Program-made: the position numbers and the translations under genes | Part shown: piece after piece, positions 18,011 to 62,369 of the stretch | Layout of the letters: every line of letters begins with the position of its first letter | Numbering within the stretch: the stretch's first letter is position 1 | The notes under the pieces: model-generated | Database searches by the model: none | Told to the model about the DNA's origin: nothing | What the model saw: only the letters and a program-made list of their open reading frames with translations | DNA from: an uncultured delta proteobacterium | GTDB taxonomy: Bacteria; Desulfobacterota; Desulfobacteria; Desulfobacterales; JAFDCJ01 | Direction: 5' to 3' | Assembly (NCBI GenBank): GCA_963769935.1 | Contig: CAVYNY010000013.1 | Location: 288,001-352,000 of the forward strand | DNA: 64,000 nt

Positions 18011-18150
18011 AACAGCGCGGCCTAAAATCGGCCTGGAACCGGAATCCTTCCCCCCCTCTGAGAAAGTAGAAATTTTGATACACTTTGTAGGTATCCGCCC
18101 CGCCGCCGGCCAGAAAAGCGGCCAATCTGATCGAAAAAGAAACATAATAG

Positions 18151-18260
18151 TTCACCGCAGAGCCCGCCGCCTCTGGCCCATAGGGCCTACGCCCCGGTGG
18201 GAGACCGCCGAGAAAGAAAATTTTTATTAATCTCCGCGCTCTCTGCGCTCTCAGCGGTGA
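18151..18260. repeat. REP-like palindromic element (TTCACCGCAGAG...CTCTGCG...GCGGTGA) carrying a 32-bp insertion
   Basis: Alignment with the copy at 60635. Confidence 0.75.
18169..18200. mobile_element. 32-bp GTAG-hairpin micro-element, copy 1
   Basis: gcctctggcccatagggcctacgccccggtgg interrupts cgcc|gagaccgc, which is uninterrupted in the copy at 60635. Confidence 0.7.
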
Positions 18261-18381
18261 GACACTTCGTAAAAATGGCATCAAATTTAAGGAAGTTTCA
18301 TATGAGCACCGCCTCTGGCCGCCAGCGTCCAGTCTGATCGGGAAAGAAACTATTATAGTGTCGTTTAATATAAGGCTGGAC

Positions 18382-18849: not shown

Positions 18850-18896
18850 TGAGTAAAGAATCCTGGCCCACAGAACCAGGTTTTCAATGTTGGAAT
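18850..18896. repeat. 47-bp dispersed repeat, copy 1
   Basis: tgagtaaagaatcctggcccacagaaccaggttttcaatgttggaat; homologous to 40389 and 60956. Confidence 0.75.
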
Positions 18897-40391: not shown

Positions 40392-40435
40392 GTAAAAAAT
40401 CCTGACCCAGAGGACTATGTTTTCAATGTTAGAAT
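40389..40435. repeat. 47-bp dispersed repeat, copy 2 (empty site), starting at the hydrolase TGA
   Basis: tgagtaaaaaatcctgacccagaggactatgttttcaatgttagaat. Confidence 0.75.
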
Positions 40436-40968: not shown

Positions 40969-42552
40969 TTATGATTCTTTGGGATCCTTTTCCGTTCTTG
41001 ATGCGGTGGAAGCCTGGTTATTTACCTCTTTTTTTTCAGATTGTACTTCACCCAGGTACTTGGGAAGTTCGAGTCCTGAAAGTTCAGCGATATCGTGCAG
41101 CGGCGGAAGACTCTTTATCAATCCCGACAGGAAATTGGCGGTGGTGTTTCCAGCTTTATCTCCATTTCCCGAATCCCAGACTGTAATCTTGTCTATCTTA
41201 AGGTTTCTTATGGCCTCCACCTGCAGGGTGACCAATTCTTCGATTTTTTCAATCATGAGAAGCGTCGCAGCTGATTTAGCATCACCGTTGCAGCTTTTAA
41301 CAAGTTCGTTATAGCCTGATGCCTTGCTTTCCAAAACTTGCTTGATACCCCGCGCTTCCGCTTCATATCTCATAAGGATTCCATCTGCATTTCCCTTGGC
41401 TTCCCTGCGAATCTTCTCTGCTTCGGCTTCGGCGGCAATTTCCACTTTTCGTTTTTCAATTTCCTGTCTGACTACCTCTTCGGCATTGAGCCGCTGTTGC
41501 TCCGCCAGGTACTGGGCCTTCTGAATTTCAACCTCCGCATTCCGTTTAGCCACTTCCCCCAGCTTCAGGGCATTGGCCTGTTTAATGGCAAGCTCTGCCT
41601 CGGCATCGGCAATATCGGCCTTGGCCTTATTTTCGCCGCCCACGGCTTGGGCCTCTTGTTCCTGAATATAGATGCGCTTATCGGCCTCGGCTTTCTTCTT
41701 GCCTTTCTCAGCCTGGGCCAGATTCTCGGCGACCTTGATCTCTTTTTCTCTTTCTGCTTCGGTTTCGCCGATGGTCGCCATTGTTTCCTGCTGCTGTACA
41801 AAGATACGTCTGTCAGCCTCGGCCTTCTTCTTGCCCTTTTCAGCCTGGGCCAGATTCTCGGCGACCTTGATCTCCTTTTCCCGTCCGGCTTCGGCCTCAC
41901 CGATGGCCCCATGTTTTTCCTGCTCGGCAACATCAATCTTGGCCTGATTGATGGCCTCCGCCGCTGCCTTTTTGCCAATGCTTCCGATGTAATCCGATTC
42001 ATCAGTAATGTCGGTGATGTTCACGTTGATTAAGTAAAGACCGATCTTGTTGAGTTCGGGGGCCACATTTTTGCGGATGGAATCCAAAAAACTTTCACGA
42101 TCCTGATTGATCTGCTCAATTGTCAGGGATGCCACCGTGAGTCTGAGTTGCCCGAAGATAATTTCTTTGGCCATTTCCTCAATATCCTGCTGGCCAAGTT
42201 TCAGAAGCCTTTCCGCAGCGTTGTTCATGACCCCCGGCTCTGTGCTGATACCTACAGTGAACGTACTAGGGACATTGATGCGTATATTCTGCATGGAAAG
42301 AGCCTTCTGCAGCGGGATGTTGATTGTCATCGGTGTCAGATTCATATAGGCATAGTCCTGGATAAGCGGCCAGACCAGGGTACCACCCCCGTGGATACAA
42401 TTTGCGGATTGACCGGTTCCCACTCTTCCGTATATCACCAGGATCTTATCGGAGGGGCATCTTTTGTAGCGCGAAGCCAGAAAGGCAAGAGTCGAAATAA
42501 CCAGAACGACAAATGCGACAATGGGTAAAACCCAGAAACCGAGGTCTTGCAT
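40969..42552 (-). CDS. Flotillin family (SPFH domain) protein with a 44-aa internal duplication
   Basis: RYKRCPSDKILVIYG, IFGQLRLTVA, AEA-rich coiled coil, KIDKITVWD. Confidence 0.92.
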   Translation of the reverse strand: MQDLGFWVLPIVAFVVLVISTLAFLASRYKRCPSDKILVIYGRVGTGQSANCIHGGGTLVWPLIQDYAYMNLTPMTINIPLQKALSMQNIRINVPSTFTVGISTEPGVMNNAAERLLKLGQQDIEEMAKEIIFGQLRLTVASLTIEQINQDRESFLDSIRKNVAPELNKIGLYLINVNITDITDESDYIGSIGKKAAAEAINQAKIDVAEQEKHGAIGEAEAGREKEIKVAENLAQAEKGKKKAEADRRIFVQQQETMATIGETEAEREKEIKVAENLAQAEKGKKKAEADKRIYIQEQEAQAVGGENKAKADIADAEAELAIKQANALKLGEVAKRNAEVEIQKAQYLAEQQRLNAEEVVRQEIEKRKVEIAAEAEAEKIRREAKGNADGILMRYEAEARGIKQVLESKASGYNELVKSCNGDAKSAATLLMIEKIEELVTLQVEAIRNLKIDKITVWDSGNGDKAGNTTANFLSGLIKSLPPLHDIAELSGLELPKYLGEVQSEKKEVNNQASTASRTEKDPKES

Positions 42553-44165: not shown

Positions 44166-44857
44166 ACGTTGCTGACCTGGCTGCTTTATTAACCCGCCCG
44201 TTTTATGGTTTTTGATATGGCCGATGTCGAAACACCTACCCGCCTGGCAACTTCGGCCAACGCAACCCCATGCCCCTTTACCAGTTCAATCGCTATCCGG
44301 CTTCGAACCCCGCTTACCTCCTTGCGGCGGCTGCCCCCCTTTAATTCGTCAAGGGATACTTTTCCATTTTTACATATTTTAGTTATATATTCATTAATTT
44401 TCTGATGACTCCGGCTGACCGGCAATTGAAATTTAATTTTGGCTTCAGCTTCTTTGATGATCCGCTCGACGAATTCACCACGGCCTAATATCCGATCATC
44501 ACTCAATTCACGTTCCCCCGAGCGGCGGTGACGGCGATTATACGAGACAGCATAACCGGTCAGCAGTCGACGCATGAAATCGGAAAGACCCCTTTCAGAG
44601 CTGCGCAAAAGGATGTGCGCATGATTGGTCATAATGGTCCAGGCATAAATGCCGGTTTTAGCATCGACGGCAAGCTTTCCGAGACGCTTTACGAAATTTT
44701 TACGGTCGGCAACATCGTTGACAATCCGCCGTCCTTCGATTCCTCGCACAATCACATGATGCAGGGTCCCCGGGACATCCAATCGAGCTCGTCGCGGCAT
44801 CGCATCCCTCCTCCATGGCGTTTTCTCAATTCACATAGCACAATTAGTCAACAACGT
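44166..44857 (-). mobile_element. Internally deleted RAYT (Y1 HUH) transposase element; ORF 44189..44800
   Basis: MPRRARLD..HHVIVRG, MTNHAHILL (HUH), YNRRHRRSG joined to ERELSDDRILG and a C-terminal HTH; catalytic-Tyr region missing; 11-bp inverted ends. Confidence 0.85.
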
Positions 44858-60634: not shown

Positions 60635-60741
60635 TTCACCGCAGAGCTCGCCGAGACCGCAGAGAATAAACAGATCTTTATTTTGCCCTTGCGGATTTTA
60701 CCTCGGCGTGCCCTGCTATCTCCAGCGCAGCGGTCGGTGAA
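60635..60741. repeat. REP-like palindromic element (empty-site version of the 18151 copy)
   Basis: ttcaccgcagagctcgccgagaccgcagag...cctcggcg...cggtgaa. Confidence 0.75.
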
Positions 60742-60955
60742 CTATTGTCTAAACAATAGATTTTTACATTTCACTTATTAGAGCGCTATAAACTACGCCC
60801 TATTTATAAATAACCACCCTAATTTCAGAACAACAGACAACCCCCATCCCATTTTGTTTACGCTCATTTAGGGTTGCATTTTGACCCGTAACAGCGGTAA
60901 TGGAAACATCTTTTCATGATTCGGCCGCTTACCCGTCAGTTATTATCCGGCCTCA

Positions 60956-61065
60956 TAGTATAGAATTCTGGCCCAGCTTCCGGCCCGCAGGGCCTACAGC
61001 CCGGCTTCCGGCTCGTAGAGCCTACAGCTCGGAGAGAGGGAGGACCAGGTTTTCAATCTTAGAAT
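60956..61065. repeat. 47-bp dispersed repeat, copy 3, interrupted by two nested 32-bp elements
   Basis: tagtatagaattctggccca|...|gaggaccaggttttcaatcttagaat. Confidence 0.75.
60976..61039. mobile_element. Two nested 32-bp GTAG-hairpin micro-elements (copies 2 and 3)
   Basis: Outer 60976-61003 + 61036-61039 (gcttccggcccgcagggcctacagcccg+gagg); inner 61004-61035 (gcttccggctcgtagagcctacagctcggaga). Confidence 0.75.
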
Positions 61066-61076
61066 AGTCGAGGATA

Positions 61077-62369
61077 ATGAAAAATAGCAAATCATCGCCG
61101 CTTCACCTGGCCTGGACCATCTGGGGATTCGGCGCCCTGTTCTACCTGATGGGGTTTTTCCAGCGGGTCGCACCCGCCGTCATGACCGCCGAGCTCATGC
61201 ATGATTTCCACCTCAGCGCCGCCGCCCTGGGCAATCTGTCGGCCTACTATTACTACAGTTATGTGGCCATGCAAATACCTACCGGAATTCTGGCGGATAA
61301 TTGGGGACCGCGGCGTCTCCTGACGACCGGAGCCTTCGTGGCGGCAACCGGTATTTTGCTGTTTGCCATGGCGCCCGACATTTTCTGGGCCAATCTGGGC
61401 CGATTTTTAATCGGCGGTTCCGTGGCCGTTGCCTGGGTGAGTACGCTAAAATTGGCCGGCGCGTGGTTTCCGCCAAAATATTTTGCCGTGCTTTCAGGCA
61501 TCGCTCTGTTTTTCGGTATTGTCGGGGCGGTATTTGCCGGGCCGCCGTTGCGGCTTGTGGTCGTTGCCTTTGGCTGGCGCGCCGTCATGCTGGCCTCAGC
61601 CGGCGTCACCTTTGCCGTCTGTGCCGGCGTTGCCTTAATCGTCAGAGATCACCCTGCTGAAAAAGGCTATGCCGGTTTTAGCGAGCCCGCCCCGGCCGCC
61701 GGCAGCGGTTCGCGCCGTCAGATTATCTCAGGCATTATCGAGGTGCTGCGTTATCCGAATGTCCGGCTGCTGTTTGTAATTGGCGGCGGAATCGTCGGTT
61801 GCGTGCTGACCTTTGGCGGTCTGTGGGGCGTTCCCTTTTTAAGTACCCACCACGGCCTCACCACCACCCAGGCCGCCGCGTTGAATTCGACCCTGCTCGT
61901 GGCCTGGGGCGTCGGCGGACCCGTTTTCGGCGGACTCTCGGATCGAATCGGCCGCCGCAAGCCGCTTTTTGTCGCCGGATGTTTGCTGACGGCCATCGGC
62001 TGGTCGCTGGTATTATTTTTACCACACTTAACGGCACCTGTCCTGGCCGGCCTGTTGTTGATCACCGGTTTCACTTCGGGATGCGTCGTCATCAGTTTTG
62101 CTTTCGCCAGGGAATCCGTGCCGGCCCACCTGGCCGGAACGGTTATCGGCCTGACCAACATGGGATTTATGCTGGGACCCACCCTGCTGCAGCCCGCCGT
62201 AGGCTGGGTGCTGGACCGAAATTGGATCGGTGATTGGTCGAACGGCGTCAAAATTTACAGTCTGCATGCCTACCGCGCCGGCTTTACCCTGCTGATCGTG
62301 TGGGCCCTGCTGTCTTTTGGATTGCTGTTTTTTACCCGGGAAACCTATTGCCGGCCAAAATCAGGTTAG
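61077..62369 (+). CDS. Major facilitator superfamily transporter
   Basis: About 12 TM helices; GILADNWGPRR and GLSDRIGRRK motif A. Confidence 0.92.
   Translation: MKNSKSSPLHLAWTIWGFGALFYLMGFFQRVAPAVMTAELMHDFHLSAAALGNLSAYYYYSYVAMQIPTGILADNWGPRRLLTTGAFVAATGILLFAMAPDIFWANLGRFLIGGSVAVAWVSTLKLAGAWFPPKYFAVLSGIALFFGIVGAVFAGPPLRLVVVAFGWRAVMLASAGVTFAVCAGVALIVRDHPAEKGYAGFSEPAPAAGSGSRRQIISGIIEVLRYPNVRLLFVIGGGIVGCVLTFGGLWGVPFLSTHHGLTTTQAAALNSTLLVAWGVGGPVFGGLSDRIGRRKPLFVAGCLLTAIGWSLVLFLPHLTAPVLAGLLLITGFTSGCVVISFAFARESVPAHLAGTVIGLTNMGFMLGPTLLQPAVGWVLDRNWIGDWSNGVKIYSLHAYRAGFTLLIVWALLSFGLLFFTRETYCRPKSG

Follow-up and report, generated by a model that had tools for sequence, protein, structure and literature searches.

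A 32-base mobile unit inserted without target duplication, with RAYT transposases as candidate movers

The locus and its three units

The stretch of DNA analysed here, called the window in what follows, comprises 64 kb from an uncultured delta proteobacterium (positions 288001-352000 of contig C13 in an 8.0-Mb assembly of 41 contigs, G000). It holds three units of 32 bp, two of them placed one within the other upstream of an MFS gene, together with filled and empty copies of the repeats that host them and two damaged genes of the RAYT family (Table 1). The inner unit of the nested pair reads, on the minus strand, TCTCCGAGCTGTAGGCTCTACGAGCCGGAAGC. An initial annotation of the window had described three exact units, one of them nested in its own kind, each with an uninterrupted form of its host nearby; re-reading of the coordinates confirmed all of this, and added a second empty copy of one host. 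No base is duplicated at any of the three insertions, in agreement with that annotation. The further statement that each unit stands immediately 5′ of GAG is correct for all three on the plus strand of the window, but it does not hold in general: GAG/CTC flanks only 148 of the 446 non-redundant copies considered below.

Table 1. Features of the window, numbered from the first letter of the 64-kb stretch
Feature	Position	Strand	Remark
32-nt unit, C-allele, CCACC variant, within host repeat H2	18169..18200	-	slot filled in 26, empty in 15 host copies
Host repeat H2, ~200 bp, heptamer-like CGCAGAG motifs, filled copy	18126..18290, ends approximate	+
Second empty copy of host H1b	18858..18887	+	not in the initial annotation
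Empty copy of host H1b	40397..40426	+
RAYT gene of subclass-2.1 type with internal deletion of 119 aa including the catalytic Tyr motif YIHLNP	44189..44800	-	member of the candidate mover family, inactive
N-terminal remnant of the same RAYT family, ~9 codons	47696..47722	-
Empty H2-type site	60635..60660	+
Host repeat H1b, hairpin ending TTTTCAA (IS200/IS605-end-like), nested unit pair in the loop	60963..61056	+	inserted upstream of the MFS gene; the orthologous site of G018 and G022 lacks both host and units
Outer 32-nt unit (C-allele), bases 5-32	60976..61003	-
Inner 32-nt unit (T-allele), inserted into the outer unit behind its base 4	61004..61035	-	fits the family pattern exactly; precisely these 32 bases are missing from an X1 contig
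Outer 32-nt unit, bases 1-4	61036..61039	-

A nested copy might be suspected of being an assembly artefact. This is contradicted by contigs of two runs, X1 and X2, which belong to one study and may derive from the source sample: the former covers 60639-61023, that is 20 letters beyond the junction between outer and inner unit, the latter 61004-61208 without a difference. Nested stacks of units also recur at other loci of the genome and in other genomes. RNA depth over the unit in run X6 was left out of consideration, as it sums many repeat copies. We also noted, at 41613-41917, direct repeats of 132 bases within an open reading frame of 527 aa (40969-42552).

Anatomy and fold

By its sequence, the unit consists of two 16-mers joined head to tail, bases 1-16 and 17-32 forming a direct repeat whose halves differ at 2 of 16 bases in a common variant. 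Forms of 16, 48 and 64 bases, which are also seen, represent slippage between the halves. Lone 16-base monomers occur as clean insertions on contig C10 of this genome and in P0117, one of them at the RAYT site discussed below; they are probably slippage products as well, mobility of the monomer being a possibility.

Three blocks of positions covary (1/7/17/23, 10-30 and 14-26), of which the first may be one old allele that was split; at pair 10-30 we counted CG in 130 and TA in 65 of 211 combinations of site and variant. The bases can be arranged as a dumbbell of two 5-bp stems separated by 3-base linkers, with an inner hairpin (14-18/22-26) and a second stem in which bases 30-32 and 1-2 lie against 6-10 (pairs 1-7, 2-6, 8-32, 9-31 and 10-30). 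As this second stem is continuous only if the ends of the unit are joined, the dumbbell is the fold that a circle would need, while pair 10-30 can form in the linear unit too. Scored over 24 variants, the dumbbell has 94.6% of cells paired and two-sided change at 6 of its 10 pairs, with 0 of 500 shuffles as high, figures to be read with the understanding that the variants were chosen by hand, that the structure was derived from the same set and that relatedness inflates such values. A rival fold, a long hairpin uniting both ends, is the lowest-energy fold of most variants, but its covariation is weaker (2 of 10 pairs, 13 of 500 shuffles). Circularly permuted units were absent from the loci, and the six hits to a permuted pattern in the genome proved to be ordinary units or slippage arrays. 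The corresponding bond at the centre of the unit is not used for opening.

The sequence GTAG at the foot of the inner hairpin had been taken as an essential tag of the REP kind. This could not be maintained. Positions 11-14 read GTAG in 346, GTAA in 60, ATAG in 18 and GCAG in 11 of the 446 copies, the GTAA variants occupy several target sites, and both strands carry GTAG. Base 14 covaries with base 26, and is therefore part of the stem.

A target defined by a single base

For the target counts we left out L102 (the class label in its title was not trusted), L111 (a duplicate), L150 and L239 (composites) and the slippage arrays, which gave 446 non-redundant copies. These form 122 target clusters, which are mostly singletons and share identical unit sequences. 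The insertion follows a C at 122 of 122 target sites. After the cut comes C at 77, T at 20, A at 17 and G at 8; position -2 is T at 65 and position -3 is C at 56 of the 122, so that a fixed base is found at -1 only. The fixed GAG/CT target and the cut at C|T proposed by the initial annotation thus gave way to a rule in which C before the cut is the sole invariant and C|C the main target. The alleles differ: of 88 sites taken by units that begin with T, 68 are C|C, as against 9 of 34 for units that begin with C (p 5e-7). A guide rule of REP type for the +1 base is contradicted by these numbers, as the targets of the two alleles are the reverse of what pairing with base 7 would give. Of 22 cases of a 33-base variant, 20 are placed within another unit's TAC loop, and this variant is also found again inside itself. 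Targeting of hairpin loops in general was considered and dropped (23 of 98 junctions, compared with 92 of 580 C positions taken as controls, p 0.08). Of 67 copies, 49 are inserted in the strand that is locally richer in G, a bias that empty hosts partly share. A preference for the locally G-rich strand is equated with one for the lagging-strand template. The latter is the expected target of chemistry of the TnpA-REP type, as described in the text available of PMC3333891.

These counts bear on whether the unit could be an ordinary GTAG REP singlet whose REP-flanked RAYT gene happens to be missing from the assemblies. GTAG does stand directly 5′ of a 4-bp hairpin in 346 of 446 copies, and for the GTGG REP doublets of this genome no corresponding REP-flanked RAYT turns up among the hits, which indicates that such enzymes can be lost. 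We nevertheless hold this explanation to be very unlikely: GTAA variants are established at several sites, C|T accounts for only 20 of 122 targets, none of 349 unit-bearing loci contains a flanked gene, and the unit is near-identical across phyla, unlike vertically inherited REPINs, while REP singlets are described as immobile in the accessible part of PMC3116915. The GTGG doublets of this genome (~60-70 REP copies, for example at C10:514597 and C22:141242) are themselves an observation worth recording, no REP-flanked RAYT having been found for them in the assembly.

Host repeats and copy number

A degenerate pattern allowing at most 4 mismatches finds 123 copies in the 8.0-Mb genome and 0 in the reversed genome, and 120 of the 123 lie outside long ORFs; when inner copies are removed stepwise, the same genome yields 127 units at 107 loci. 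The hosts are a few larger intergenic repeats, which include heptamer arrays, GTGG REP doublets and a hairpin resembling IS200/IS605 ends. Their slots are either empty or longer by one unit, with precise 32-bp presence or absence at seven slots (empty/filled on contigs of at least 100 kb: 54/18, 9/20, 23/6, 61/10, 15/26, 51/17 and 13/2). Units also interrupt the coding frames of RAYT, IS91-like and IS5-like genes, where the empty site is unambiguous and duplication absent. In L114 (1500-1531), a unit breaks a reading frame which, judged by eye, resembles a DNA methyltransferase.

No orthologous site empty for the unit alone was found, the orthologues of the MFS locus in G018 and G022 lacking the entire host. 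As host and units are missing together, the H1b host must itself be an insertion, and most of the copy number is therefore hitch-hiking. The hairpin of H1b presumably resembles the ends of IS608, and the repeat resembles a hairpin adjoining an IS200 TnpA in locus L192. With ~70 copies genome-wide it has the look of an orphan IS200/IS605 end; strand bias is strong among its empty copies (37 against 5), though the Y1 hits of the genome include no IS200-type TnpA. H2, present at 18126-18290 and 26 other loci, comes in near-identical filled copies and looks recently amplified.

It could then be argued that the unit is immobile now, and that a few ancient insertions were spread by host repeats and recombination, since pairs of variant and host persist across genomes and host amplification accounts for most copies here. 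Against this stand the 122 target clusters, mostly singletons, that share identical unit sequences, the presence of different variants in homologous host slots, and the 33-base variant nested in itself, so that we find the argument barely credible. We consider it almost certain that the 32-base piece is a real mobile unit, and the initial description of a very small, precisely bounded, non-autonomous element that makes no target duplication can be retained.

A route that dispenses with HUH enzymes, whether through an RNA intermediate and reverse transcription or through template switching or slippage at replication, appears quite unlikely to us. Slippage between halves is indeed observed in the 16-, 48- and 64-base forms, and the folds would form in RNA too. 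Slippage, however, cannot account for one 32-base sequence at 122 sites that are unrelated and spread over many phyla; no recurrent neighbour like a reverse transcriptase was recognised, by eye, in the 30 largest clusters of ORFs near units; and no Rfam family matches at threshold, the five weak matches all remaining below the gathering score.

RAYT genes as recurrent targets and candidate movers

The RAYT family represented at 44.2 and 47.7 kb had been proposed as a possible mover. For the two window copies this fails, as genes deprived of the catalytic Tyr or reduced to nine codons are not movers themselves; what survives of the proposal is the family, which recurrent insertion of the unit at one base of its genes makes the best candidate. 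Intact relatives are present in the same genome on contigs C9 (369937-370971) and C15 (144366-145367). The genome also contains ~60 short remnants of RAYT genes of subclass-2.1/2.3 type, many of them internally deleted.

Long RAYT genes of subclass-2.1 type carry the unit at a single base, between Phe and Gln, within the Gln codon that follows the GHLF motif and between the HUH and Tyr motifs, where it truncates the protein four residues later. We found seven such loci in DNA (G000:C11:108323, L122, L401, L419, L461, L515 and L517), of which the first five show a likeness of 43-66% in the region of the site; a single clade for them is rejected (p-AU 0.004, 135 columns). Among the best 120 short database homologues of a first RAYT type, 7 end in the unit's translation at this Phe (query with the 4-residue tail), and among 120 of a second type 8 end in it at the same Phe (query without the tail), while the unit's peptide occurs nowhere else in the 240 fragments. 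Several database fragments of RAYT also break just before the GHLF motif. On the tree of the first type, the 8 unit-bearing rows need 8 changes, at least 4 of them forced; on that of the second, 6 changes are needed and only 1 origin is forced. Part of the count consists of co-amplified genes that were already plugged (the P0133 cluster). A link to the QNRY-type RAYT alone was rejected, as the other RAYT type has the same site. The site is not an obvious one: it scores poorly on the general target matrix, with 17-85 positions per 330 bases scoring as well, and no conserved fold was found at it in 29 intact genes.

Across genomes, the co-occurrence that the initial annotation had suggested checking is modest: RAYT 2.1 was found in 9 of the 11 genomes with the unit and in 13 of the 33 without it (p 0.03, kin not being independent). 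The nearest copy lies more than 5 kb from all 11 Y1 hits of this genome, units are found at 0 of 28 Y1 loci of the genus, in five distant genomes units accompany 2 of 30 loci and on one side only, and no unit-flanked gene appears in 349 unit-bearing loci. A RAYT of subclass-2.1 type is most probably to be regarded as the lead candidate mover; that it would prove to be the mover on assay is a prospect we rate below even.

It may also be asked whether the unit is moved by a different HUH enzyme (a Y2 transposase of IS91-like type, or the TnpA of an IS200/IS605 element), RAYT genes being only a favoured target. Two unrelated IS91-like elements carry several units each, among 120 IS91 fragments 4 stop in the unit and do so at one site, and the genome has an open IS91-like frame of 405 aa; for the IS200 side, host H1b is like the hairpin beside the TnpA of L192, and units lie near IS200-type genes in L306 and L312. 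Yet 27 of 30 IS91 loci of the genus are without a unit and the remaining three are one element, the four fragments share 88-91% identity with the query and so may record one event, a class-1 TnpA is absent among the 11 Y1 hits of the genome, and the target is a single C, not a word of 4-5 bases. We therefore judge a mover of this kind unlikely, and return to the RAYT family as the one to be preferred.

The idea that the unit is the end of an IS91-like element, raised by shared flanks that stop at the unit, was discarded when nine regions of genome G007 showed units inside the transposase gene. In the same genome (L217-L223) an IS91-like element with a four-helix-bundle gene (PF05635) exists in 7 near-identical copies with four units, one of them split by an IS110 element, and 5 of the 7 copies of the IS91-like element have undergone deletion between two units. 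An IS110 donor or a MITE, which are of a different size from the unit, are argued against by that size and by the absent duplication.

A proposed route through a single-stranded circle

We propose, with a probability of about 0.55, that the unit is non-coding and travels as a dumbbell circle along an HUH (Y1) single-strand route, served in trans with RAYT 2.1 as the lead candidate. On exposed single-stranded DNA, the HUH enzyme would cut after the target C and after the last C of the unit. The ends would then be joined to a circle of 32 nt, in which bases 30-32 and 1-2 would pair with 6-10 and so mirror the inner hairpin. The circle would open again at the same C|Y bond and no other, before being joined into a further C|N site. 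Most of the copy number would come from later amplification of host repeats that carry a unit, and action of the enzyme on or near its own gene would explain why the RAYT gene is hit at a single base.

The proposal of a circle rests on the chemistry of TnpA-REP and on a precedent in subclass 2.4. The former cuts after C and joins strands, excision of a single-stranded circle having been proposed (PMC3333891), and a change of guide yields cuts at C|T, C|A or C|C (PMC8266576); in the latter, insertions of REPs between HUH and Tyr of the RAYT gene to which they belong are described (PMC6006769). Subclass 2.1, for its part, is reported without REP-like flanks in the same source; all three papers are taken here from the parts of their text available. 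A more ambitious reading is the more doubtful one, and we offer it as tentative: the unit might be a minimal transposon moving as a 32-nt single-stranded dumbbell circle, the first substrate of the large RAYT subclass 2.1, and it would parasitise other single-strand elements across phyla, repeatedly plug the gene of its mover between HUH and Tyr as an off-switch which an intact enzyme could take out scarlessly, and exist in variants with their own target preference, such as the 33-base variant directed to the loops of other units.

The present family offers a defined substrate of 32 nt, hundreds of natural junctions, a circular fold backed by covariation and a named candidate enzyme that is intact in the same genome, and the question of how very small bacterial repeats such as REP singlets, SDRs and SMRs move can therefore be reduced to a direct oligonucleotide assay. 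Two features in particular make the mechanism testable, the fold that closes the circle and the fixed insertion point in the candidate transposase. If the proposal is true, it would give a first substrate to RAYT subclass 2.1, which is present in 14.9% of strains and has no known partner according to the available text of PMC6006769, and it would set a lower size limit for scarless transposition through single strands.

Relation to known small elements

With GTAG REPs and REPINs and their RAYTs, as the text available of four papers presents them (PMC3333891, PMC8266576, PMC3116915, PMC3733652), the unit has in common a hairpin after GTAG in most copies, a cut after C, the absence of duplication and an extragenic position (120 of 123). 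It is unlike them in that its GTAG is not invariant, C|C is the main target, no RAYT gene is flanked by it and it crosses phyla. A REPIN consists of two inverted REPs and a spacer, whereas the unit is single or nested and its internal repeat is direct. PATEs, including IS605-type forms of 52 bp reduced to their termini (PMC3119063, in the part consulted), are likewise tiny, bear palindromes, make no duplication and have two similar halves; they use, however, a target word of 4-6 bases where the unit uses one base, and no parent transposon with the ends of the unit was found. Indeed, no IS200/IS605 parent sharing these ends turned up in this genome or in the fetched loci, the lone halves of this genome being damaged or nested units, none of which flanks a transposase. 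A MITE is defined by terminal inverted repeats and a target-site duplication, and the unit has no duplication.

Elhai and co-workers are said to have reported in 2008 that SDRs insert cleanly, also into other repeats. SDR1-8 of Nostoc and relatives are very small mobile repeats whose mover is given as unknown (PMC3116915, PMC2884548, as far as the accessible text goes). Set apart by description and not by sequence, the unit differs from SDRs in its taxa, in being a dimer of 2 x 16 bases, in the stem that spans its junction, in its C-only target and in its link to a candidate enzyme. SMR-A of Haloquadratum, again compared by description and from the available portion of PMC3119063, also makes no target duplication and inserts into palindromes of IS605 type and into PATEs by a mechanism called enigmatic, but it is archaeal, ~110 bp long and bounded by terminal inverted repeats, as against 32 bp and many host classes. 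The unit shows the traits of these repeats in being very short and dispersed, in inserting cleanly and in nesting in other repeats. As to the enzymes, the genes hit by the unit encode long Y1 proteins of the type of subclass 2.1, or TIRYT (PMC6006769, PMC3733652), for which the text at hand describes no REP-like partner; and where REP insertions in subclass 2.4 keep the frame (PMC6006769, same restriction), the unit truncates its RAYT four residues on. The unit works like a non-autonomous single-strand element of REP or PATE type, yet departs from both in the features that define them; its place is with the very small mobile repeats, SMR-A and the SDRs among them. We found no description of this family in the open-access literature; supplements of the papers cited could list related sequences.

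Distribution of the unit

Near-identical units are present in 18 of 22 relatives within the genus and in 0 of 18 genomes of other families in the same sample, and a wider survey found the unit in 11 of 300 other genomes of the phylum. At least 115 unit-bearing stretches were recovered from genome contigs, mostly titled Desulfobacterota, other titles among the listed stretches being Fermentibacteria, Verrucomicrobia, Planctomycetota, Acidobacteriota, Lentisphaerae and Nitrospinaceae; at least 123 stretches came from metagenome contigs. The carriers are sediment and soil bacteria of several phyla, with the proviso that these labels are record titles and not checked taxonomy, L102 having been dropped. 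Single copies on short contigs titled Bacteroidota and Chloroflexota may be misbinned. One genome titled Fermentibacteria (G045) holds 59 copies, in a different set of hosts. Finally, two contigs of a viral collection, L042 and L043, carry units as exact matches, a possible route between hosts.
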